Sequence record: OQ442786
Length of the DNA stretch: 44,509 bases
DNA from: Escherichia phage JSSK01
Reading direction: 5' to 3' (one strand)
The notes under the pieces were generated by a model. That model was not told where the DNA came from. It made no database searches and saw only the letters and a program-made list of their open reading frames with translations. Positions within the stretch are counted from its first letter, which is position 1; each line of letters starts with the position of its first letter. The translations under genes and the position numbers were made by a program. Below are positions 4,563 through 41,795 of this stretch, in pieces.

Positions 4563-6044
4563 ATGTTAACTATGAACGGTCAGAATCAGGGTGTTAAGAC
4601 TAAACACCGGGAATGGCTGCATCACTTCAATAAATGGCAGAAGGTACGCCACGCGCTGGAAGGCGACCTTATTCGCTACCTGCGCAACGTCGGGAAGAAC
4701 GAGCCTGACCCGACCTACGCAGCACAGCGCCAGGAAGAATACGAGAATGGCGCTATCTGCTACAACTTCACTAAACGTACCCTGGCGGGGATGGTTGGTA
4801 GCGTCATGCGCAAAGACCCCGAACAAATTATTCCGCCTGAGCTTGAGTACCTGTTACGTAATGCGGATGGTTCTGGTGCCGGGCTGTGGCAGCACGCGCA
4901 GGACACTTTGATGGAGATTGACTCAGTGGGCCGTGGCGGGTTGCTGGTGGACGCCCCGGAGACAGCTGCGGCAACGGCAGCAGAGCAGAACGCAGGATTA
5001 TTAAACCCGGTCATCGCATTCTACACCGCAGAGAACATCATCAACTGGCGATTGACTCGCGTCGGTTCAGTGAACCGCGTAACGATGGTCGTGCTGCGTG
5101 AGGTATGGGAATACTCTGAACCGGGAGCAGAGTTCGAAACAAAGTTCGGTGAGCAGTACCGTGTTCTCGATTTGATTGACGGGCGCTACCGCCAGCGCAT
5201 TTACCGCTTCGACGCTGAAGGTGGCGCTCAGGGCGAAGTAATCGAAATCTTCCCGGAACTCGGCGAACAGTTACGCGGCAAAATCCCGTTCACGTTCATC
5301 GGGGCAAGCAACAACGATGCGACCATCGACGACGCCCCTTTGCTGCCGTTAGCTGAGCTTAATATCGGGCATTTCCGCAACAGCGCGGACAACGAGGAAT
5401 CCAGCTTCGTTGTAGGCCAGCCTACTCTGTTCATCGCCCCTGGCGAGAACATGAGCATGGAACAGTGGAAAGAAGCCAACCCTCACGGCGTGCGCATGGG
5501 GTCGCGTTCGGGTCATAACATAGGTTACGGCGGCAATGCATTTCTTGTTCAGGCAGGAGAGAACAACCTCGCCAAACAGAATATGCTGGATAAAGAGAAT
5601 CAGGCTATCCAGATTGGCGCGCAGCTTATCACCCCGACGCAGCAAATCACCGCTGAATCGGCCCGCCTGCAACGCGGCGCTGACACGTCCGTTATGGCGA
5701 CAATCGCACGTAACGTAAGCATGGCGTATACCGATGCGTTGCGCTGGGCGGCGGCGATGCTAGGGCTACGTGAAGACACAGAAATCGAGTTCAAGCTGAA
5801 TATGGAGTTCTTCCTGCAACCGATGACCGCTCCCGAACGAGCGCAGTGGATGGCGGATATTAACGCTGGCCTGCTACCCGCTACTGCTTATTACGCGGCA
5901 TTGCGCAAGGCCGGTGTAACTGACTGGACAGACGAAGATATTCGGAACGCTATCGAGGATGCGCCGCTGCCGTTAGGTACTGTTGCTCAGGTGGAGGGGG
6001 AGATTCCGCGGTCGGCACAGCAACAAGACGCCGCCCAGCAGTAA
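4563..6044 (+). CDS. portal protein
   Basis: 493-aa ORF directly downstream of terminase large subunit, acidic C-terminus; call by position and size. Confidence 0.8.
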   Translation: MLTMNGQNQGVKTKHREWLHHFNKWQKVRHALEGDLIRYLRNVGKNEPDPTYAAQRQEEYENGAICYNFTKRTLAGMVGSVMRKDPEQIIPPELEYLLRNADGSGAGLWQHAQDTLMEIDSVGRGGLLVDAPETAAATAAEQNAGLLNPVIAFYTAENIINWRLTRVGSVNRVTMVVLREVWEYSEPGAEFETKFGEQYRVLDLIDGRYRQRIYRFDAEGGAQGEVIEIFPELGEQLRGKIPFTFIGASNNDATIDDAPLLPLAELNIGHFRNSADNEESSFVVGQPTLFIAPGENMSMEQWKEANPHGVRMGSRSGHNIGYGGNAFLVQAGENNLAKQNMLDKENQAIQIGAQLITPTQQITAESARLQRGADTSVMATIARNVSMAYTDALRWAAAMLGLREDTEIEFKLNMEFFLQPMTAPERAQWMADINAGLLPATAYYAALRKAGVTDWTDEDIRNAIEDAPLPLGTVAQVEGEIPRSAQQQDAAQQ

Positions 6045-6054
6045 GTTCATCTAT

Positions 6055-6076
6055 AGCCCCGAAAGGGGCTTTCTTA
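6055..6076 (+). terminator. hairpin AGCCCC-GAAA-GGGGCT with short T-run (attenuator)
   Basis: read from sequence. Confidence 0.35.
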
Positions 6077-6080
6077 TAGT

Positions 6081-7157
6081 ATGCTATTAACTTTAGCACC
6101 GCAGGGTTTATCTATGAGCTTACTTACATCCCTAATCAGCCACCAGATTTGGCTGCAACGCACCGCATCCGGTGAGGTGAAAGACCTAGCACCGTTCATT
6201 CAGGAGATGCGGGACGAAATAAAACGGCAGGTGCTGTTATTCGGCGACGACGGTCGCTCCACACGGCGACTGAATAAACTGTTACGCGACCTTGAAGAAG
6301 CACTGGCGGGACTTACCGGTGACTGGCAAACAAAGCTGACAGAAGACCTTAAGGAGCTGGCGACGTATGAGGCTGAGTGGAACGTAAAGACACTTACCAC
6401 CAACGTTAACGCGGAATTTGTTACACCTACCGCCGAGCAGGTGTGGGCCGCTGCCGAGTTTCAACCTCTGTCGCTAAGTGACAAGCCCGTTGACTTCACC
6501 AAGCTGATGTCAGGCTGGGGTGAAGCGGAGGTCGCGCGCCTTGTAACTGGCGTTAAGATGGGCTTTGTGCAAGGCCAAACCACACGGCAGATTGTTAAAG
6601 AAGTAGTTGGTAAAGGCGGCCTGGCTGACGTATCAGAGAAACACGCTGCTACAGTAATCCGCACCGCGCTGTCCCACGTGTCCAACGAAGCCCGTAATGA
6701 GACGTACCGCCAGAACGACGACATTATCGAGAAATATGAGTGGGTGTCTACTCTTGATTCTAGGACCTCAGCCGTTTGCAAGGCCAGAGATGGGATGACG
6801 TGGGAAATCGGTAAGGGTCCGATGCCTCCGGCCCATTTTGGGTGCAGAAGTACCACTGCGCCTGTAATCAGTTCGGAGTTCTACTTCCTCGATAAAGGCG
6901 CAAAACGAGCGGCTAAGGGTGCGGACGGAGGTACTCAGGTAAGCGCAGACACCACTTACTACGAGTTCCTGAAACAACAACCGGCATGGTTTCAGGACCA
7001 GGCTCTAGGCCCGGTGCGGGGTAAGATTTTCCGTAACAGCGGTATATCGCCGGAAGAGTTTCGCGTAATATCTGTAGATGGTTTCGGGAATCCGCTCACG
7101 CTTAAGCAGATGGCGGAACTCGATAAACGTGTTGCTGATTATCTGAAAGGGGAATAA
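6081..7157 (+). CDS. head morphogenesis protein (Mu F / SPP1 gp7-like)
   Basis: motif LDSRTSAVCKARDG...PPAHFGCRS resembles the conserved D-R...DG...P-H-x-CR signature of the Mu F family; follows portal. Confidence 0.7.
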   Translation: MLLTLAPQGLSMSLLTSLISHQIWLQRTASGEVKDLAPFIQEMRDEIKRQVLLFGDDGRSTRRLNKLLRDLEEALAGLTGDWQTKLTEDLKELATYEAEWNVKTLTTNVNAEFVTPTAEQVWAAAEFQPLSLSDKPVDFTKLMSGWGEAEVARLVTGVKMGFVQGQTTRQIVKEVVGKGGLADVSEKHAATVIRTALSHVSNEARNETYRQNDDIIEKYEWVSTLDSRTSAVCKARDGMTWEIGKGPMPPAHFGCRSTTAPVISSEFYFLDKGAKRAAKGADGGTQVSADTTYYEFLKQQPAWFQDQALGPVRGKIFRNSGISPEEFRVISVDGFGNPLTLKQMAELDKRVADYLKGE

Positions 7158-28991: not shown

Positions 28992-29667
28992 GATTAGCCT
29001 CGTAAACTGCTTTCGCAAACCCTCTCGGAGTAAGGCTGCGGATTGTCTTTGTCCGCACTGATTTACCGCCAAGTTTGTTGTGCTGGTCGGAGTACCCATC
29101 AACAACGGCAACACATGATTTAACCGGCATAACAAAACCGTTACCCGCCCAAATACATGTCTTCTTAGGGTACGCGTCCCGTGGTTTTATGTATTCAGGG
29201 AACATTGGGTGTGTGTCGTTTTCCGGTAGATAGCCGCCGTATTCGTAGGGATTGAACGCGTAGTCGGGCCTACGCCATAAAGACGAAAGAACGCTAACAG
29301 GGTTCTCAATCATATACGGTACTTTGTACTTTTTAGCCAGACGCGCTGCCACTTTGCATGTAATCACAGCCTCTACCTGAAACGTTGGGTTCTTCTTACG
29401 CTTCGTTTCGAAATGCGCCGCGCCACTAACGGCTAAATCTGTGCAAGGAGGGAACGCAAAAATAATATCCGGCGAAACCTCGAAGTCGAACTTATTATCA
29501 ATCCACGCGTTTATATAGTGGATGTTCTCGTGTTCAACCTTTGCACCCAATCGTGCGTAGTCGCCGTGGTCAGCGCCATCGTAGTTGAAACAGTAGCAAG
29601 TATGGCCTGCTTCTGCCCACGGTTGGGCCATAAGGCCCGAACCGTCAAACAATGACCAAACAATCAT
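28984..29667 (-). CDS. DNA (cytosine-5)-methyltransferase-like protein (compact, atypical)
   Basis: motif I LFDGSG, motif IV PPCT (Cys ~75), motif VI ENP (~121) with spacing similar to C5-MTases; only 227 aa. Confidence 0.55.
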   Translation of the reverse strand: MIVWSLFDGSGLMAQPWAEAGHTCYCFNYDGADHGDYARLGAKVEHENIHYINAWIDNKFDFEVSPDIIFAFPPCTDLAVSGAAHFETKRKKNPTFQVEAVITCKVAARLAKKYKVPYMIENPVSVLSSLWRRPDYAFNPYEYGGYLPENDTHPMFPEYIKPRDAYPKKTCIWAGNGFVMPVKSCVAVVDGYSDQHNKLGGKSVRTKTIRSLTPRGFAKAVYEANHV

Positions 29668-30386: not shown

Positions 30387-32547
30387 AACGTTTTAACTCC
30401 TGACCTTCCGCTACAAGAGGGAACCCTTCGGCCCATTCTGGTAATTCGCACATCAACCGCTCAAGCTCTGCGACATTGTATTCTGGTAAATCCGGTGTCT
30501 CGCAGATAATTTCATCGTGAACATGGAGCACAATCGGGTAGCCGTTTGCCTCTACGTTCAGCAGCGCGTTAGCCAGCAAATCACGGCACAGCGCCTGAGT
30601 GCAGTTTTCCACCAGTTTACCAGAGTAGGTGTACTGGAAGCCCCACTGACGGGTTAACTGGTTCTCCCCCTGGTACTTGATGCGCACGTTAGTAGACACT
30701 TTTCCATCTTCGTCTGTCTCTTTCGACACGCTTAACCCGACACCTGGATAAGACATAACGCGGCCCGACGGCAACGTCATGCGCAACCACCAACCGGCGA
30801 CTTTGTTGCCGTTGTTGTCTGTCTCTACGTTGCGCGAAAACTTAACGCCGCGGGGACCTGCGGTGAACTCTTTACCGGGATTACGGATTGCTGCCATAGC
30901 TGCGTCTTCAATATCGCGCCAGAATTGGACTATTGCAGGATTAGCTTCCCGGTACATGCGCTTTAAAGCGTCACAGGTGCGCCAAACTTTCTTATCAAGG
31001 ATATATGAGGGTCGGTCATCTTTTTCACCAGGACGTGGTGGTCGCTTGGCTTCCTGAATACGCGCCCATTCGTATCCGCGTGCGGTAGCGGCCCAAATAT
31101 GGTCCGGGAATGTACCGTCTAAAGTGTTAGTCATGTCATTCAAATCAAGACCTAAGTTTTTAGCAAACGTGACGAAAGCACCGACGCCCCCCGCGTAGCC
31201 GAGTCCCAGAACCATTGCTTTGGCTATTTGTCTTTGGTCCTTTGTTACGGCTTCATATGCAACATTGAACACCGTTGATGCGAGTTTCTTATACACATCA
31301 ACCCCGTTTACAAATACTTCGATTAAATCGTCTTCACCCGCCAGCCACGCAAGACCGCGGCCTTCGACGTTAGAGTAATCGGCAACGACAAACTTATGCC
31401 CTGCTTCCGGTATGATGCAGCTGCGCACCGTCGATGCCGTTAGTTTGGCTACATCGAAACGGCGGTGCGCACGGCCTTTAAGTAACGCAGAAATGCCTTT
31501 ATCCAGTTCGTCGTCGTGATAGTACCCGCGAGCCAGGTTCTGCGGCTGGAAGCCTTTACCCGCAAATCGTAACGTACGTTTAGCTCCACCATACTGGATG
31601 CAACCGCGACGTCGGTCGTCCGACGAGCGGCCTAACAGCAGCGGGTTATATTTCGTGGACGCTGTTGACGCGGCCCCGAGGCGCATTTCGATAATCATCC
31701 GGGCGTCGTCCGGTAAATCATCATCTGCCAACAGGTCGTTAAGCGTCGACTTCTGTGCATTGTGTATGCGGTGCGCGGGCGCAAGTTCACGCAGAATCGG
31801 AAGGAAGTCTTTACCGGTAAGCGAGCCGCCGTATTTACGTTGAGCTTCTTCCTGTAACTGTGCCTTGTGCTTCTCTACGGCTTCAATCGCGGCTTCCGCC
31901 AGTGCGACGTCAACCTTAAATCCGCGGTCGTTGATTAACTGGTCAAGTTCCAGTACACGGTCTTCGAACTCGGAGTTACCCCAACGCGGCAGCTTATGGA
32001 AGACTTCACGCATCGCAGTGATGTCGCTCACGGCGTACCTGATGAACATCGCCCACTCGTCAGGGTGAGTTTCTGCGGTGTAGCGGCGGATTTTGTAGTT
32101 CTTCGGCGTCGGTTTAGAGAAACGCTTAATCAGAGCCTTGCCGCGTTTATCTTTCGCGTTGTCTGCAGACACGCCCAGCACTTCGCACAGCGCATCAAGA
32201 GAACCCGGCAGCGCGTGACGGAACGCCCAAATCATAGTATCAATGGTGTTACTTACCGGAATATCAAAGTCCCAGCAGTGTTTCATGATTAGGCGATCGA
32301 AAAGTCCACCGTTGTGCCACACCATCCTGATGCGGCTGTTGGGCTTAACAAGGCGGCGCAGTGCGCGGTGTAAATCCCCCGGCATGTCGCTGCCGTCGGT
32401 GCAATCCCATACCTGCACAGGCTCATCGTCAAAAGCATAGGTACAGATTAGCACTTCGGTTGACGGGTGTTCGGCGTAAGCGTAAGAACCGACTTTCTTC
32501 AAATCGGCTTCTGAGAATGTTTCAAAGTCTAAGAACAGGTAACTCAT
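30376..32547 (-). CDS. family A DNA polymerase with 3'-5' exonuclease domain
   Basis: Exo I motif LFLDFETFS; motif A DYSNVEGR; motif B RQIAKAMVLGLGYAGG; motif C HVHDE. Confidence 0.9.
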   Translation of the reverse strand: MSYLFLDFETFSEADLKKVGSYAYAEHPSTEVLICTYAFDDEPVQVWDCTDGSDMPGDLHRALRRLVKPNSRIRMVWHNGGLFDRLIMKHCWDFDIPVSNTIDTMIWAFRHALPGSLDALCEVLGVSADNAKDKRGKALIKRFSKPTPKNYKIRRYTAETHPDEWAMFIRYAVSDITAMREVFHKLPRWGNSEFEDRVLELDQLINDRGFKVDVALAEAAIEAVEKHKAQLQEEAQRKYGGSLTGKDFLPILRELAPAHRIHNAQKSTLNDLLADDDLPDDARMIIEMRLGAASTASTKYNPLLLGRSSDDRRRGCIQYGGAKRTLRFAGKGFQPQNLARGYYHDDELDKGISALLKGRAHRRFDVAKLTASTVRSCIIPEAGHKFVVADYSNVEGRGLAWLAGEDDLIEVFVNGVDVYKKLASTVFNVAYEAVTKDQRQIAKAMVLGLGYAGGVGAFVTFAKNLGLDLNDMTNTLDGTFPDHIWAATARGYEWARIQEAKRPPRPGEKDDRPSYILDKKVWRTCDALKRMYREANPAIVQFWRDIEDAAMAAIRNPGKEFTAGPRGVKFSRNVETDNNGNKVAGWWLRMTLPSGRVMSYPGVGLSVSKETDEDGKVSTNVRIKYQGENQLTRQWGFQYTYSGKLVENCTQALCRDLLANALLNVEANGYPIVLHVHDEIICETPDLPEYNVAELERLMCELPEWAEGFPLVAEGQELKRYAK

Positions 32548-33287: not shown

Positions 33288-33316
33288 ACTATAATAGCTA
33301 ACTATTCAGGTGTCAA
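33288..33316 (-). promoter_or_regulatory. replication-module promoter cassette copy 2 (TTGACA-17-TATAGT)
   Basis: plus-strand text GAACTATAATAGCTAACTATTCAGGTGTCAACAC. Confidence 0.55.
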
Positions 33317-33320
33317 CACT

Positions 33321-34562
33321 TTATTCTAAATCTTTTTCACTAACCCGATTCCACTCAGGACGTTTGTCGTTTGCCGTTGCGACACATGGCGCTCCTGGCT
33401 TACGGGTAATGAAGTCTTTCAGTTCATCTTCCGGTATGACTTTAACAGCTTCGGTTGGCGTCATGAGCACTTGCTTCATTAGCGCTATGCCATACTTGCC
33501 AGCAACTTTCTCCGCGTCTTTCCACGCACGATTACCTGGGCGTCCTTCTACCAGTTTGTACCCCGGCACTTTCTTACCGGAATGCAGCGCGGCAGCCATA
33601 GCTTTCTCAACCTTGTCGATGTGCTGGCGCAACAACGGCAACTTCTCATACTCAGCTACAAGTTGCTCCGTCGTCAGTTCCAGCGCAAAGTCGTCCTCCA
33701 GTTCTTCCGCCAGTACAGCGTTAACGGTTTTTGTACGCGCGGCGCATTGTTCAGAGAACCGACACCACTGACAACCATCGACAGACGGCTTAAAGTCAGA
33801 TGCTTTCAGGTTCTTCTTGCCGCGGGAATAGGCATCGAGCGCTAACAGTGCTCGTTTTTGTGCAAACTTAGCGAACAGTTCAAGGCCTTCAACCGAGATG
33901 TCCCACTCCGACGCACCGCCAGCGCACGGCTGGAAAATTACCAGACGAACCACGGTGATGTTATAACGCCTCTTGAGTCGGCGATAAACACCGAGAGCGT
34001 AAAGCATAAGCTGCTTGTTTTCTTTCGCTTCGACACGATGCCGTCCTGTTTTCAGGTCGCCGATAATGAGCATATGCTCGTCAGTGTTCGCCAGTTCCTG
34101 AACGGCAACAAGGTCAGCGGTTCCGAACGTCTCAACGCCTTCGTAACCCGGATGCAATACCTCAGTAAGATTTACCCGCATTTCCAGCTTGGCGTAAGTC
34201 GCTACGTCGATAATCGCTTTGCAGTAGTCGGTGTACTTGCGCACCTGCTCAATCATGTCAGCCGTAATCAGTACCGCGCCTTTCATCTGGCTAATTAGCG
34301 CCTTAATCTGGCCTTTACCCTCGTCCAGCACGTAAGCGCCGACTTCACGCTCCAACGGCAACGCAGTGCCGCGTATATAGGCGTTGAGATGGACCTCAGC
34401 TATGGTGTGCATGGCGGTTCCTGATACAGCGGCTTTACCCGACGTGTTAGGGATATCTTTTTCACACGCCAGCGACGCAGCGCATGACAGCCACTTTTTA
34501 GCGCCTGACGGTGACAGTAAGGCGTGTACATCATTATTGCCGCCTCGTTCTTTTAGTTTCAT
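33321..34562 (-). CDS. PD-(D/E)XK exonuclease (DUF2800 / Cas4-RecB-like) with C-terminal Cys cluster
   Basis: start reassigned to ATG 34562 (MKLKE); N-terminal LLSPSGAKKWLSCAASL typical of DUF2800; C-terminal CQWCRFSEQC. Confidence 0.6.
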   Translation of the reverse strand: MKLKERGGNNDVHALLSPSGAKKWLSCAASLACEKDIPNTSGKAAVSGTAMHTIAEVHLNAYIRGTALPLEREVGAYVLDEGKGQIKALISQMKGAVLITADMIEQVRKYTDYCKAIIDVATYAKLEMRVNLTEVLHPGYEGVETFGTADLVAVQELANTDEHMLIIGDLKTGRHRVEAKENKQLMLYALGVYRRLKRRYNITVVRLVIFQPCAGGASEWDISVEGLELFAKFAQKRALLALDAYSRGKKNLKASDFKPSVDGCQWCRFSEQCAARTKTVNAVLAEELEDDFALELTTEQLVAEYEKLPLLRQHIDKVEKAMAAALHSGKKVPGYKLVEGRPGNRAWKDAEKVAGKYGIALMKQVLMTPTEAVKVIPEDELKDFITRKPGAPCVATANDKRPEWNRVSEKDLE

Positions 34563-36407: not shown

Positions 36408-36436
36408 ACTATAATAGCGAACTATTCACATGTCAA
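36408..36436 (-). promoter_or_regulatory. replication-module promoter cassette copy 3 (TTGACA-17-TATAGT)
   Basis: plus-strand text TAACTATAATAGCGAACTATTCACATGTCAATGG. Confidence 0.55.
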
Positions 36437-36500
36437 TGGGCTTTTCTAAAATAATTAATATGGTACTATTCACATATCAACTGACTAAGGAGTAACTGAC

Positions 36501-36716
36501 ATGCAACCATCTGAACTAGGCATCCGTGTAGAGCAACGCCGTAAAGAACTCGGTATCTCCCAGCGCCGTCTGGCTGTTCTGGCCGGCGTTTCCCAGGGCG
36601 CGATTAACCAGCTTGCACTCGGGGTAACTCAGGACGTACGCCCGGCAACGCTGTTTAAACTGGCGGAAGTGCTGGAAGTAGACGCCAAGTGGCTGGCGCT
36701 AGGTGAAGGGGCGTAA
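36501..36716 (+). CDS. XRE-family HTH transcriptional regulator (Cro/CI-like)
   Basis: ISQRRLAVLAGVSQGAINQL is a classic HTH_XRE signature; AAGGAG SD; stop codon lies in terminator loop. Confidence 0.7.
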   Translation: MQPSELGIRVEQRRKELGISQRRLAVLAGVSQGAINQLALGVTQDVRPATLFKLAEVLEVDAKWLALGEGA

Positions 36717-36733: not shown

Positions 36734-38956
36734 CTATTCCAAATCCTCCTCTGTCACCACCAGCATCTCATTTGGTTCGTATAGTGTCTTCGGCCTTAAT
36801 CTATCACCTATTCTTTCGGGTATACGATATGTTCTCGGTACTACTTCGCCGTTAGCATCGCAACCAAGCATTAGTTCTCCATCTTTCAACATTTTATCAA
36901 GATGGGTGTTAGTCACAGAGAAGTCACCGGAACGAGCCACTATCTGCTGCTGAGTAAAACCGCGACCTGTGTCATCTGACTGTTGCAGGTCTTCCAGTGC
37001 CGAAAGTATTGACTCCTTCCTTACTTCATCCCTGCCGCGTTTAACTTCTTCCTTTACTTTTTGCTTACCTTCTTTCGTCAACCCTTCTTCCCGCTCTTTC
37101 TCCTCGTCAGTTTTGAACGGCTCGAAACCCCACGGCATCAACACAAGCGCCTTGTGTGGTTCAGGCAGGTCCAGGTTTACGATTGTGCCGTATTCCTCTG
37201 TGCTACCCAGGAACTCAACCGCTCGGTATTCTTTAGGCGGCGGCGCTTCACGGAACTGTACCGACTCCAGCACCATGCCAACCGTCTTCTGCTGAGGCCC
37301 GTGCTTGAATTTCGAGTGATATACGTTTATCTGACGGTCGGTTGCACGTTCGATTGTCAGTTCCACGTCAACACCCGCATACAGCGCCCCACTGCCGCGT
37401 GCTTTCTTTCCACCCTTCGGCGTATGGTGGACAACGCCTACTGCGGCTTTAGTTGCATCGCGTACTTCTTTCAGAATGGCGATAACTTTACCCATGCCGA
37501 TTGCTGTTGATGAACTGTTCTCGTCGAACTTATCAATCGTCAGTGCCAGGGTCTGGTTAAGGGTGTCGAACGCAACCATGCCAATTGGCTCGTCGCCAGC
37601 AGTTTCGCGCATTAACTTAATCAGGCTTTTAAGTTTGCCGACTTCGCCCATATCGATGACGTGTACATAATCTTTACCTTCCCCGCCATATTTAGCCGCT
37701 AGTGCATCAATACGGGTGCGTGTAGCTGCGCCACCCTCACCATCAATATAGAAATGGTGGCAACGCTGGGTATCCGCCCCCGCAAACCTGTACCCGGCGG
37801 CGCTGAGGCACATCATCCCCAGCGTATAGAACGATTTGTACGTGCCAGATTCCCCGACGATATCCCAGATACAATCCGACGGCATGTACCCCTCAACGAC
37901 GAAATCAGCCTTTACCGGCTCCGGTAACTCGTCCTCCTCTGAGTCCTCGTCGTCTTCCAGGTCGTCGAGGCTGCAAGTTACTGGGTCCTCGTTCTCTGTG
38001 CGGTGTAGTTCTTCAATCTCTTCTTCCGGTAAATCAGGCAGAGCCGCACGAATGCTGTTAATGCTGATAGGTTGCTTATCTATGTTAAGCTCGTCGGGTA
38101 GGCCACACATACGCAGGGCCAAATGCTGCCTACGGTTAAGCTCGGTGCAAGCGCCGTTGTTTGTATGCTGGCAGACAAAGCGCACTTCTTTACCGTCGAG
38201 CATTATGCTGGTGGAGCCCTTGCCTGTATGCAGATGTTCGTTAGGGCATGGCACTTCGTACCCGCGCCCGGAAGATAAAGCGTCAAGGCCAAGCTCGGCT
38301 TCGCAGAAGTGTGCTATATCCGCGTTAAGCCCATGCTCATCAGCGGCAAGTGTTTTAGCCTCACGCTTACGCAACCCCATCTCTTCGGCTTTCTTGATGT
38401 ACCGCTCAGCACGGATAACACGCCCTTCTGTAACCGTTATCTTCGACTCTTTATGCGGCAGGTAGATAAGGCGGTTGCCGTCTTCTGTGCAGTGGTCACG
38501 CAACGCTTCGTCTATTTCTAACTCTGCACAAATAGCACGTTGCACCATCCACGCGTCGTTAGAGTTAAACGGCGTGCGAGCTGGAACCAGAACGCGGAAA
38601 GCGTAATCTCCGTTTTTACATGCGTGCTGATGCGATGCCGTTGTGTGCAGAATATTGAAGAACGGCGCGTTCTTGAATTTGCGTGTCAGGTCGCGGTACT
38701 GAGTACGGTTGAGATGGTCGAAATCGAACTTAACCACACTGTCTTCCAGGATAGCGTTTTTACGGCGACCACCAACAGGCGCAATAGCTTTCTGTTTAAT
38801 CTTGGCAGCGTCGTACTCTTCCTTAGTCCATGACGGGTCCACGGATAAACGCTTCGATGTATCGCAGACATACTCGACAAACTGCTCCAGCGGCATTTCA
38901 CGCGCTACAGGGTTTTTATCGAATGTGTTACGCAGCGTTGCAAAAACAATATTCAT
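36734..38956 (-). CDS. DNA primase/helicase (AEP-type primase-like N-terminal region + RecA-like ATPase)
   Basis: Walker A GESGTYKS, Walker B-like MVAFDTLNQ, sensor VVHHTPKGG; N-terminal DxD (FDFDHL) and His-rich block suggestive of AEP primase. Confidence 0.75.
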   Translation of the reverse strand: MNIVFATLRNTFDKNPVAREMPLEQFVEYVCDTSKRLSVDPSWTKEEYDAAKIKQKAIAPVGGRRKNAILEDSVVKFDFDHLNRTQYRDLTRKFKNAPFFNILHTTASHQHACKNGDYAFRVLVPARTPFNSNDAWMVQRAICAELEIDEALRDHCTEDGNRLIYLPHKESKITVTEGRVIRAERYIKKAEEMGLRKREAKTLAADEHGLNADIAHFCEAELGLDALSSGRGYEVPCPNEHLHTGKGSTSIMLDGKEVRFVCQHTNNGACTELNRRQHLALRMCGLPDELNIDKQPISINSIRAALPDLPEEEIEELHRTENEDPVTCSLDDLEDDEDSEEDELPEPVKADFVVEGYMPSDCIWDIVGESGTYKSFYTLGMMCLSAAGYRFAGADTQRCHHFYIDGEGGAATRTRIDALAAKYGGEGKDYVHVIDMGEVGKLKSLIKLMRETAGDEPIGMVAFDTLNQTLALTIDKFDENSSSTAIGMGKVIAILKEVRDATKAAVGVVHHTPKGGKKARGSGALYAGVDVELTIERATDRQINVYHSKFKHGPQQKTVGMVLESVQFREAPPPKEYRAVEFLGSTEEYGTIVNLDLPEPHKALVLMPWGFEPFKTDEEKEREEGLTKEGKQKVKEEVKRGRDEVRKESILSALEDLQQSDDTGRGFTQQQIVARSGDFSVTNTHLDKMLKDGELMLGCDANGEVVPRTYRIPERIGDRLRPKTLYEPNEMLVVTEEDLE

Positions 38957-39150: not shown

Positions 39151-39441
39151 TTACCGTTTAGCCAACCCTTCCAGCAAATTTTTATACTCTTCAAAATATT
39201 CCTCGACCAAATCATCGCCGAAATAGAAGTCGATATACTCGAGATTATCTCTTACGTTAAGCGATGCCGACATGGTGCTTAGTTGGCGTAAGCTAATTAG
39301 CTTCATTTCTGTTTCTACGCAGAAAGGCCGGTAGGTATCAAGATGGCAAGAGATATTGAAGCATAAAGCGAACTCTCCTGCCACGGAGTGAACCATATAC
39401 ACTTCGTTTTCTGCTTTATTGTGGAAAATTACGCCTTTCAT
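39151..39441 (-). CDS. hypothetical protein (96 aa)
   Basis: track ORF, ATGA-coupled to upstream HTH gene. Confidence 0.45.
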   Translation of the reverse strand: MKGVIFHNKAENEVYMVHSVAGEFALCFNISCHLDTYRPFCVETEMKLISLRQLSTMSASLNVRDNLEYIDFYFGDDLVEEYFEEYKNLLEGLAKR

Positions 39442-39620
39442 TTCACGTTCTCCTTAATCCATGCTTCGACTTTATTACGGTCAAATGTTCCCGGTAAACG
39501 GCGGCCCATAATCTTAATACAGCAGTCAGGGAATTTGCCGCTGCGCAACCAGTTATTAATTGTCTGACGTGTCACCCCGATACGTTCAGCTACTTCATTC
39601 TGCGTCATATAATGCGACAT
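39438..39620 (-). CDS. small HTH DNA-binding protein (AlpA/excisionase-like fold)
   Basis: start reassigned to ATG 39620 (AGGAGAT SD); MTQNEVAERIGVTRQTINNWLRSGKFP is HTH-like; first gene of minus-strand operon. Confidence 0.55.
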   Translation of the reverse strand: MSHYMTQNEVAERIGVTRQTINNWLRSGKFPDCCIKIMGRRLPGTFDRNKVEAWIKENVK

Positions 39621-39651
39621 TTTTATATCTCCTGTTTGTTTGGTGAAACTG

Positions 39652-39680
39652 AGTATAGGATAGCGGGAATGTAAAAGCAA
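39652..39680 (-). promoter_or_regulatory. candidate leftward promoter TTGCTT-17-TATACT
   Basis: read on minus strand upstream of HTH gene. Confidence 0.4.
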
Positions 39681-39717
39681 CCAATCTCTGTAATATTTAA
39701 TCTTTACAAAAATGTTA

Positions 39718-39747
39718 TTGAAAGTTCTTGACACATGTTTGTATAAT
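39718..39747 (+). promoter_or_regulatory. candidate rightward promoter TTGAAA-18-TATAAT
   Basis: perfect -10 hexamer; adjacent TTGACA is only 8 bp from the -10. Confidence 0.4.
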
Positions 39748-39753
39748 GGTTTT

Positions 39754-39973
39754 GGGACTTGTATATATTACGGAGTTGACGAACCCTCCCCGAGGGATTC
39801 GTCAACCCCTCCCAGACAGCTGAGATGCTTGCCTTGGGGTTTAAGGATAAGTGTATCTAAATCTCATTTAAAGAAGTAACCCGCTGAAATATCTACTGTT
39901 TCTTAATGTGCCGTAGATTCGCAACCGTAAAAATGTAACGATTATTGGGCAGGCTTAAGCCTGCCCTTTAGTT
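39754..39973 (+). ncRNA. candidate ~215-nt non-coding transcript ending at intrinsic terminator
   Basis: no ORF longer than ~15 codons; imperfect palindrome GTTGACGAA...TTCGTCAAC; CCCTCCCCGA boxes. Confidence 0.25.
39947..39973 (+). terminator. rho-independent terminator (GGGCAGGCTT/AAGCCTGCCC perfect inverted repeat, TTTAGTT)
   Basis: 10-bp perfect inverted repeat followed by T-rich run. Confidence 0.6.
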
Positions 39974-40038
39974 ACCAAGTAATAAGAATAAAGGCACAAC
40001 CCTCCCCGAAGAATCACAACGGCAACGTAACTATTCTC

Positions 40039-40067
40039 TTGCACACCCCAACATAATAGGTTACTAT
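40039..40067 (+). promoter_or_regulatory. early promoter TTGCAC-17-TACTATTCA with AACGAGACA leader box
   Basis: near-identical to promoter at ~41735. Confidence 0.55.
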
Positions 40068-40101
40068 TCACTTATCGAAACGAGACATAAGGAATTTAGA
40101 G

Positions 40102-40320
40102 ATGAACAAAGCGACCGCAAGCGTAGTTTCCGCAATCAAAGAAGTTTACGGCATCGATATCTCAGAGCGCGTAATTATCGGGAACAAGCGCAACTTCTTT
40201 ACGTTCGACACCGACGGAATGGATGAAAATGATTTTGTTAACGTACAACGTTTCGCTAACGGTAAAGGACTTCGTAACGAGCCAGCGGGTTACAAGAAAT
40301 TTGCTATCTACTTTAAATAA
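40102..40320 (+). CDS. hypothetical early protein (72 aa)
   Basis: AAGGAA SD; first ORF of right-end early block. Confidence 0.5.
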   Translation: MNKATASVVSAIKEVYGIDISERVIIGNKRNFFTFDTDGMDENDFVNVQRFANGKGLRNEPAGYKKFAIYFK

Positions 40321-41422: not shown

Positions 41423-41454
41423 TGTTCAATAGTTTGGGATTTTACTGAGTGACT

Positions 41455-41510
41455 TACGCTGCTACACAGCAGCGTACAACTTTAACTTAGTGTCGTCAAA
41501 AGGCGACACT
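41455..41510 (+). promoter_or_regulatory. two tandem hairpins without U-tract (possible RNase III processing or regulatory sites)
   Basis: ACGCTGCT-ACAC-AGCAGCGT (8-bp perfect stem) and AGTGTCG-N8-CGACACT (7-bp stem) in a 135-nt intergenic gap. Confidence 0.35.
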
Positions 41511-41556
41511 TTCACCAAACGCAACAATCGAAGTGACTATTGCAGGAGACGCAACA

Positions 41557-41734: not shown

Positions 41735-41763
41735 TTGCACACCGGGATAGAATAGGCTACTAT
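41735..41763 (+). promoter_or_regulatory. early promoter TTGCAC-17-TACTATTCA with AACGAGACA leader box
   Basis: near-identical to promoter at ~40039. Confidence 0.55.
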
Positions 41764-41795
41764 TCATTTACACAAACGAGACAGAGGAAAACGAA

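Follow-up and report, generated by a model that had tools for sequence, protein, structure and literature searches.

In Escherichia phage JSSK01 (sequence record OQ442786; 44,509 nucleotides, the whole of which is called the window here), a unit lacking any sizeable open reading frame (ORF) runs from a strong rightward promoter, P1, to a GC-rich hairpin within the gap between the leftward replication operon and the rightward genes. We tentatively regard this P1 unit as an undescribed early non-coding RNA unit of the virulent Guernseyvirinae phages. A sequence-only reading of the window had offered a regulatory RNA, a replication origin with iteron-like boxes, or operators for the neighbouring helix-turn-helix (HTH) proteins as possible roles of the gap; among these, a non-coding or regulatory RNA is the best supported, by the pairing kept in relatives, by conservation, and by the ORF-less layout from promoter to hairpin. 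The anatomy of the unit, its conservation, its modularity and the RNA-like pairing in relatives were observed directly in the sequences compared, which covered ~50 loci from roughly 390 public Guernseyvirinae genomes.

By its sequence the window is a Kagunavirus genome of the subfamily Guernseyvirinae, whose members considered here (Kagunavirus and Jerseyvirus) are virulent siphophages of 41-45 kb. The gap is 99.8% identical to that of Escherichia phage Bas70, and 389 phage records match part of its 481 bp, nearly all of them from Kagunavirus (E. coli) or Jerseyvirus (Salmonella). No homologue of the gap was found in 5,426 complete E. coli genomes, and the sole match in a plasmid search was one 44-kb record sharing only the block around the downstream promoter P2, which is probably a Kagunavirus genome itself. 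Among the metagenome loci listed as matching the unspecific 15-mer AAAATGTAACGATTA, at least 120 in number, none carried the element. The literature yielded no description of it and contained in-silico promoter and terminator calls only, and in ~330 public genomes the element is either unannotated or lies under spurious small ORFs.

Layout of the gap and of the ORF-less unit

As had been proposed, the gap separates the leftward replication operon from the rightward genes, extending over 481 bp from the HTH_17 gene (39438-39620, minus strand) to the ORF at 40102, and it is a divergent control region in which the leftward promoter PL and the rightward promoter P1 stand back to back (Table 1). 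In PL the AGTATA motif and the CAA of the -35 are invariant in a six-phage alignment; the promoter was missed by the consensus scan because its -35 matches at three of six positions. P1 carries a promoter annotation in phages AG11 and fBC-Eco01, and each of the four types of 5' module described below has a rightward promoter close to consensus at this place, the sequences in the other types being TTGACA-17-TAAGGT or TAAGTT, TTGACT-17-TAAGCT, and TTGACA/TAAAAT (spacer not counted). With its two back-to-back promoters, a conserved ORF-less unit and a second, regulated promoter, the gap is an early control hub.

The ORF-less rightward unit that had been noted between promoter and hairpin is real, and its position is conserved across the subfamily. 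The longest plus-strand ORF inside 39755-39975 has 16 codons, and the unit folds with a minimum free energy of -70.6 kcal/mol, for a z of -5.0 relative to shuffled sequences. No tRNA or tmRNA was detected by ARAGORN, and Rfam gave no match for the window, the region or three related loci at either gathering or relaxed thresholds, the best E-values of the region being 1.9-3. A hidden small gene was considered and set aside: the ATG of a 10-codon ORF at 39906 is absent in K1ind1-type phages, and on the minus strand Bas70, Bas72 and 590B are each annotated with different ORFs, which run across an indel whose length is not divisible by three. Small minus-strand "hypothetical proteins" are drawn over the promoter and the hairpins in Bas70 and other records (39704-39805 and 39955-40071, both on the minus strand); since such calls vary by genome and the indels break their frames, these ORFs are very likely spurious.

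At its 5' end the unit carries a stem-loop that was found by inverted-repeat search. It contains the first of two repeated boxes (box 1, 39782-39793) and is followed directly by a degenerate copy, ACCCCTCCCAGA (39805-39816). The stem-loop is invariant in seven phages that share the 5' module of the window and is present in ~20 Kagunavirus records. The imperfect palindrome GTTGACGAA...TTCGTCAAC reported earlier is thus present at 39775-39806, but the idea that it serves as an operator finds no support, as the palindrome is restricted to one of four 5' modules. Since it lies 20 nt into the transcript, an RNA hairpin fits it better than an operator does.

Modular mosaic and pairing in relatives

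In every relative examined the locus has the same order, namely a promoter, 200-290 nt without a conserved ORF, a GC-rich hairpin, the block CACAACGGCAACGTAAC and P2, and the rightward promoter lies 75-100 bp from the start of the leftward gene. Within this frame the unit is a mosaic. Four 5' modules were distinguished, A (the window and ~20 records), B (K1ind1-like phages and all Salmonella Jerseyviruses examined), C and D, together with three 3' modules, I (the window and ~330 records), II and III, and they were found in the combinations A+I, B+I, C+I, C+II, D+II, B+II and C+III. The module type tracks neither the N-terminal variant of the helicase-primase nor the first downstream gene. The other modules (5' B, C and D; 3' II and III) occupy the same position in five Kagunavirus loci (L026, L029, L036, L047 and L049) and are unrelated. 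In the type C module (GCGACCGCGG...GGAAGGGCC) the sequence of an internal hairpin changes between phages with its pairing kept, and these alternative modules look like further undescribed structured RNAs.

The pairing was followed in the B+I units of 30 relatives. At 56 predicted pairs, the structure being predicted from the same 30 mutually related sequences, 99.4% of cells were paired, compared to 33-49% when the partners were slid by 1-3 columns. Compensatory double changes were found at three pairs (28 cells), and at six stem positions Watson-Crick pairs alternate with G·U on the plus strand, in 3-14 sequences each; A·C, the equivalent of a wobble on the minus strand, was seen in no more than one or two sequences at any position. 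On visual inspection, unrelated sequences that remain complementary have taken the place of the apex helix, as in CCGCC/GGCGG, CGCTT/AAGCG and GTTTAAC/GTTAAAC. This pattern favours a plus-strand RNA as the object of selection in the upstream two-thirds of the unit, and bears in no way on the conserved core further downstream.

The conserved hairpin and the candidate terminator

RNAalifold on two sequence sets (20 and 30 sequences) and a single-sequence fold agree on a hairpin of ~90 nt in module I. The core of this module (39903-39999, 97 nt) is 89.8-100% identical in ~330 E. coli and Salmonella phage records. Between genera it is ~95% identical, compared with 71-78% nucleotide identity for the flanking genes (window against Salmonella phages), which makes it one of the most conserved stretches compared, above the adjacent genes.

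At the tip of this hairpin, a perfect 10-bp inverted repeat followed by a T-run had been described. The repeat stands: the 10+10 pair GGGCAGGCTT/AAGCCTGCCC (39947-39966) has no second copy in the window, where chance alone would give 0, and forms as RNA an 8-bp stem with a 4-nt loop (-16.3 kcal/mol); the T-run, in contrast, amounts only to TTTAGTT. In most relatives the hairpin is GGGCAGGC-TTAAG-GCCTGCCC, an imperfect palindrome from which the window differs by the loss of one G, and the "perfect" palindrome is a peculiarity of the lineage of the window. The loop varies freely above an invariant stem, and covariation of the top pair between C-G and U-A is seen in 11 of the 34 unique sequences; the same hairpin has been predicted as a terminator in fBC-Eco01. 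If the tip acts as an intrinsic terminator, most P1 transcripts would thus end near 39970, giving an abundant early RNA of ~215 nt.

Several points weigh against a stand-alone RNA of this kind. The ends of the transcript, its abundance, its termination, and RNA rather than DNA as the product are all deduced from sequence. The U-run UUUAGUU is short, with three proximal U and five of seven overall, and although it passes a simple scan it is weaker than a typical one. The stretch past it (39974-39997) is equally invariant and pairs with 39908-39920, which is impossible in a terminated RNA; the 3' strands of stems P1a and P1b, and most of that of the hairpin stem P2, likewise lie 3' of the U-run. 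Read and scored by hand, the GC stem of 3' modules II and III is not followed directly by a U-run, and a canonical terminator is lacking in both. Among the 34 unique sequences the single substitutions in the core include four of the G·U type and three of the A·C type, and therefore its strand cannot be called. Furthermore, the loops of the core are conserved as strongly as its stems, a sign of recognition that depends on the sequence, possibly that of the DNA. Nearly invariant as it is, module A varies too little for covariation, and for this reason the evidence for RNA pairing comes from other modules. Lastly, no complementary target for the RNA was found in the phage.

Some of these features bear on another explanation, which we consider unlikely on balance, in which early transcription of the rightward operon truly starts at P1 and the unit is part of a ~350-nt 5' leader acting in cis. 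The hairpin would form only in read-through RNA, as a processing or stability site (T7 RNase III-like), a leaky attenuator or a polymerase-modifying element (HK022 put-like), and P2 would take over later under operator control. Such a leader would account for lower stems that require sequence 3' of the U-run. It would also fit module II, where a full inverted pair, GUUGCCGU/ACGGCAAC, closes the long hairpin, nearly reaching the -35 of P2 with no U-run directly after the GC stem, and phage L036, in which GAATAAAGGCAC is swapped for GAATCTACGGCAC so that the internal loop between stems P1a and P1b becomes a continuous helix of 13 bp. The plus-strand pairing pattern suits a leader as well as it does a stand-alone RNA. 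On the other hand, P2, placed after the hairpin and ahead of the first gene, is seemingly self-sufficient, the same promoter and leader being found at two other genes. The C-rich, G-poor stretch after the hairpin (C/G ratio 2.1 over the linker 39976-40060) is more like a Rho entry site that would stop untranslated read-through, and boxA/boxB-like elements are lacking, as is an Rfam match. At 14 and 10 nt, the hairpin has internal loops exceeding those of known RNase III substrates.

The same conservation can be set against a simpler proposal, that the gap holds promoters and an insulator only. P1 would serve coupling to PL or early recruitment of the polymerase, the hairpin would stop P1 transcription so that P2 can be regulated, and the RNA would be a by-product. 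The lack of a target, of an Rfam family and of a homologue outside the Guernseyvirinae phages is in keeping with this proposal, and the 5' modules are exchanged freely, as if their sequence mattered little. A by-product, however, would not retain its helices through compensatory and wobble changes, nor hold 97 nt at ~95% identity next to genes at 71-78%, and every module type keeps 200-290 nt of structured sequence with no shrinkage to a bare terminator. We regard this proposal as the least probable of those weighed here.

Search for targets of the proposed RNA

Candidate pairings of the RNA with the phage were examined and rejected. An 11-nt complement between 39876-86 and 40283-93 is missing in relatives that keep the RNA and lack the gene concerned, and anti-Shine-Dalgarno pairing of the CCCUCCCC motifs found no complementary G-rich sites near phage start codons. 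Similarly, no GGGGAGGG-type complement of the C-rich boxes was found at phage start sites. A small RNA of the Hfq type is marked by a conserved seed with its target and by a long 3' U tail. Here the 5' domains are wholly different between lineages, which leaves no such seed as far as phage targets are concerned, and only UUU comes before A/G interruptions in the tail.

The swappable 5' domains, of at least four unrelated types, on an almost invariant 3' scaffold might make up a strongly expressed early RNA, an accessory cassette of virulent enterobacterial siphophages acting on a host function, in takeover or counter-defence. We consider this doubtful and offer it as a speculation; if true, the cassette would correspond, at the RNA level, to the small early proteins that other phages exchange.

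Repeated boxes, the octamer and a possible origin

Two copies of a box, CCCTCCCCGA, had been reported as iteron-like. Both exist, the first at 39782; the second lies at 39998-40009 and not at ~40007. Exact copies of AACCCTCCCCGA thus begin at 39782 and 39998, with a degenerate copy at 39805. Of 2000 dinucleotide-shuffled versions of the region, 24 contain an exact 12-nt repeat (p ~0.012), which is unusual and not compelling. Box 1 is invariant in the seven phages with the 5' module of the window (96-100% identity). At the site of box 2, CCCTCCCCG is found in the window only and is replaced by CCTTCCCTA, CCCTACCTG, CCCCACCTG or CAGTTTCGA in the other module-A phages, and many Salmonella phages have a 10-nt deletion there, which places box 2 in the most variable and least constrained stretch of the gap. 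Conservation of the repeat in relatives was therefore not borne out, box 2 being changed even in phages that are 96-99% identical, and the pair appears to be a lineage-specific coincidence. Nor can the boxes be taken for the iterons of an origin, given the variability of the stretch that contains box 2; the exact copies number two, beside a degenerate one, the gap lacks an iteron cluster and a DnaA box, and within 250 bp none of its 8-mers reaches three copies.

A different word is over-represented in the window. Whatever the word length between 6 and 10, ACGGCAAC (reverse complement GTTGCCGT) heads the over-represented words; the octamer is present in 27 copies with ~1.4 expected, and CAACGGCAAC in 9 copies with 0.09 expected. 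The degenerate form ACGGCARC has 43 copies (27 plus, 16 minus), or about one per kb. Since the copies occupy all six reading frames, sense and antisense, codon usage does not explain them. Enrichment of the octamer extends to the other Kagunavirus and Jerseyvirus loci compared. In a 50-kb sample of E. coli K-12, ACGGCARC has 8 copies, so that part of the bias is host-like, although the phage is ~5 times denser. We found no mention of the octamer in the literature; sites for the helicase-primase, for a nickase or for a DNA-binding protein are candidates. In all three 3' modules, and in the distant Serratia phage Tsm2, inverted ACGGCA-type words bracket the hairpin.

In Tsm2 (locus L197) a 577-bp ORF-less region (4700-5280) directly follows the helicase-primase gene and carries four TTCCGCACA/TGTGCGGAA iterons and an AT-rich stretch. 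In the same region GTTGCCGTT and ACGGCAGC flank a GC-rich hairpin, two G-rich boxes stand at a distance of 212 bp from each other, and P2 follows with the operator seen in the window. The arrangement resembles an origin adjoining a homologue of the element of the window.

These observations raise the question of whether the gap of the window works at the DNA level, as a replication origin or primosome-loading site in which transcription from P1 opens or primes the imperfect palindrome of ~90 bp. The gap adjoins the replication operon, with the helicase-primase gene 0.7 kb away, and coincides with the minimum of the cumulative GC skew (~39-40 kb) and the lowest-GC part of the genome. Primary sequence is kept in the loops as in the stems; the bracket GTTGCCGT ... 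hairpin ... ACGGCARC persists around three unrelated hairpin sequences and in Tsm2, whose equivalent region has the iterons just described; and the octamer has the density and the spread over frames given above. The scaffold and its inverted ACGGCARC words may form an origin, and the octamer may be the recognition word of the phage helicase-primase. Against this, the gap has no iteron cluster, no DnaA box at up to one mismatch, and an AT content of 0.35-0.75 per 40-nt bin with no marked AT-rich block beside the palindrome. The skew minimum follows the switch in gene direction, both N-terminal variants of the helicase-primase occur with modules I and II, and the boxes first read as iterons are not conserved. 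The excess of G·U over A·C in the upstream domain likewise argues for selection at the RNA level there. All in all we think an origin rather improbable; were it one, the replication start of the subfamily would have been identified.

Promoter P2 and its putative operator

The -10 of P2 is overlapped by the palindrome AATAGGTTACTATT (40055-40068), which occurs in seven copies with at most one mismatch (0.08 expected), all at intergenic or promoter-like sites. Near-identical 22-mers of P2 are also found ahead of two other genes (16808-16829, minus; 41749-41770, plus), and in all three promoters of this type the -10 is separated from the start codon by 33-35 nt. P2 comes with a -35, a -10 and an operator of its own, and with a gap of ~35 nt from the -10 to the start codon, so that the rightward genes need not depend on P1. 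A "phage promoter" consensus reported for fBC-Eco01 (PMC9825357) agrees with this combination of promoter and palindrome.

Two of the copies, 36413 and 36457, lie in divergent promoters on either side of an XRE-type HTH gene (36501-36716). This arrangement suggests that AATAGnnTACTATT is a genome-wide operator and that the XRE-type HTH gene is autoregulated. It had been suggested that the gap holds operators for HTH proteins; the palindrome at 40055-40068 appears to be the best operator candidate of the region and is probably bound, over the -10 of P2, by a phage HTH protein, whereas the palindrome at 39775-39806, which is present in a single copy in the genome, does not qualify. An operator-like palindrome at seven promoters provides a concrete handle on the transcription programme of the phage.

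Neighbouring genes and other observations

On the left of the gap, the HTH_17 gene is followed by two small ORFs and by the gene of a 740-aa helicase-primase (36734-38956, minus), which closes the operon and in which AAA_25 is the sole Pfam match. In many Kagunaviruses the N-terminal ~308 residues of this protein are replaced, and tblastn aligns residues 309-740 alone (74-94%). In an RNA-sequencing study of the related Kagunavirus vB_Eco_K1B4, the only such study of a Kagunavirus met with, the equivalent of the HTH_17 gene (gene 008) was among four "early" genes, intergenic signal being outside the scope of that study (PMC12645636; time-course reads PRJCA028359 / PRJNA939978). The corresponding gap in OQ696342.1 (19149-19629, reverse strand) shows 96.7% identity to that of the window and carries the A+I unit as well. 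On the right, a series of small plus-strand ORFs begins at 40102, and this first gene is missing in some phages with the same upstream unit.

Two hairpins, ACGCTGCT-ACAC-AGCAGCGT and GTGTCG...CGACAC, lie together with a pair of ACGCAACAAT repeats in a second small intergenic region (41423-41556). With an identity of 96% to K1ind1 and of 75-82% to Salmonella phages, this region too is better conserved than its neighbours. The records of the Salmonella phages sidste, blauehaus and skrot begin or end within the conserved core (the equivalent of 39905-40041), which is probably an assembly break at the palindrome and not a physical end or a nick.

Table 1. Positions in the window of the features of the gap and of its repeated words
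Feature	Position	Strand	Basis or remark
HTH_17 (AlpA/Xis-like) gene	39438..39620	-	ORF list; Pfam HTH_17, E=1.5e-8; first of leftward operon
Leftward promoter PL	39652..39680	-	-35 TTGCTT (39680-39675), 17-nt spacer, -10 TATACT (39657-39652); read from sequence
Rightward promoter P1	39718..39747	+	TTGAAA-18-TATAAT; 11/12 consensus positions; promoter scan
ORF-less transcription unit	39755..39973	+	~215-220 nt; predicted start ~39754-39756, predicted end at end of U-run
5' stem-loop of module A	39775..39806	+	GUUGACGAACCCUC-CCC-GAGGGAUUCGUCAAC; inverted-repeat search; -19.6 kcal/mol
Long irregular hairpin, conserved 3' module I	39908..39997	+	RNAalifold and single-sequence fold
Stem P1a	39908-12 / 39993-97		
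Stem P1b	39917-20 / 39986-89		
Stem P2 of hairpin	39935-39 / 39971-75		
Stem P3, apical "terminator"	39947-54 / 39959-66		
Apical GC hairpin and UUUAGUU, candidate intrinsic terminator	39947..39973	+	Terminator scan
Box 2 (AACCCTCCCCGA)	39998..40009	+	Inside variable C-rich, G-poor linker
Conserved block AAGAATCACAACGGCAACGTAAC	40010..40032	+	One ACGGCAAC copy at 40019-40026; partial inverted copy GTGCCGT at 39908-39914
Promoter P2	40039..40067	+	TTGCAC-17-TACTAT; -10 overlapped by palindrome AATAGGTTACTATT (40055-40068)
First rightward ORF, 72 aa	40102..40320	+	~35 nt downstream of P2 -10; without Pfam match
Octamer copies, examples	11315-11325, 29102-29112, 30805-30815 (-), 33632-33642, 40016-40026		
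Palindrome AATAGnnTACTATT copies	6075-6088 (-), 16814-16827 (-), 33293-33306, 36413-36426, 36457-36470, 40055-40068, 41751-41764		

Proposed working of the unit and comparison with known systems

If the unit does encode an early non-coding RNA, the host RNA polymerase would start leftward at PL to transcribe the HTH_17 gene and the replication operon, and from the strong P1 it would make a modular, highly folded RNA instead of a gene. The 5' domain of this RNA would be specific to the lineage, consisting here of the stem-loop at 39775-39806 followed by a C-rich single strand, and the 3' domain would be nearly invariant, its GC-rich tip and UUUAGUU acting as the intrinsic terminator. Molecules that read through would complete the long hairpin and would probably be stopped by Rho in the C-rich, G-poor stretch before P2, and P2 would drive the rightward genes under the control of its operator. 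As a guess, the RNA would act in trans, with the swappable 5' domain as the effector and the conserved 3' hairpin as a terminator, a stability element or a protein-binding scaffold.

Kagunavirus and Jerseyvirus phages are among those isolated most frequently for use against E. coli and Salmonella in therapy and biocontrol; their early regulation is uncharacterised. Kagunaviruses also serve as small chassis in phage engineering (PMC11990801). An RNA at this place would represent an undescribed family of phage non-coding RNAs with an unusual modular build, and would mark a site where payloads should not be inserted blindly.

Short ORF-less units with a strong host-type promoter and a hairpin terminator, placed between divergent operons, are known as lambda OOP, P22 sar, P1/P7 C4 and P4 CI RNA, which the P1 unit, with its candidate terminator, resembles. 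Those, however, are antisense or immunity RNAs of temperate phages with a nearby target, whereas the present phage is virulent and none was found in it; the Guernseyvirinae RNA would also be longer (~215-290 nt), with a 5' half that is swapped between relatives. Like the early leader of T7, from the A1-A3 promoters to R0.3, the locus has several hundred untranslated nucleotides after strong promoter sequence and a long irregular hairpin before the first early gene, but here the operator-bearing P2 stands between hairpin and gene, and the hairpin has large internal loops and a terminator-like tip. The HK022 put and lambda nut sites are conserved stem-loop RNAs located right after an early promoter, which gives them a likeness to the P1 unit; here there is no boxA/boxB, no two-hairpin architecture of the put type was recognised, and the element is terminator-like.

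Transcription-activated origins such as T4 ori(uvsY) and ori(34), the primary origin of T7 and ColE1 RNA II share with the P1 unit a strong promoter, a non-coding transcript (predicted for the P1 unit) beside replication genes and a position at an inflection of the skew, which here coincides with the switch in gene direction. They differ from it in that the gap lacks an unwinding element, iterons and DnaA boxes, and the pairing statistics favour selection at the RNA level. As in intrinsic terminators, the tip has an 8-bp GC-rich stem, a variable loop of 4-5 nt, a covarying top pair and a U-rich tail facing an upstream promoter; the tail is short, however, and ~30 nt beyond it are invariant and pair upstream, which an ordinary terminator would not need. 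The P1 unit is probably a phage early non-coding unit and belongs to no known system for which it could be tested, having no Rfam family, no seed-target pair and no iterons, and what sets it apart is its modular build, a core far more conserved than the flanking genes, and the bracket of octamer words around its hairpin.

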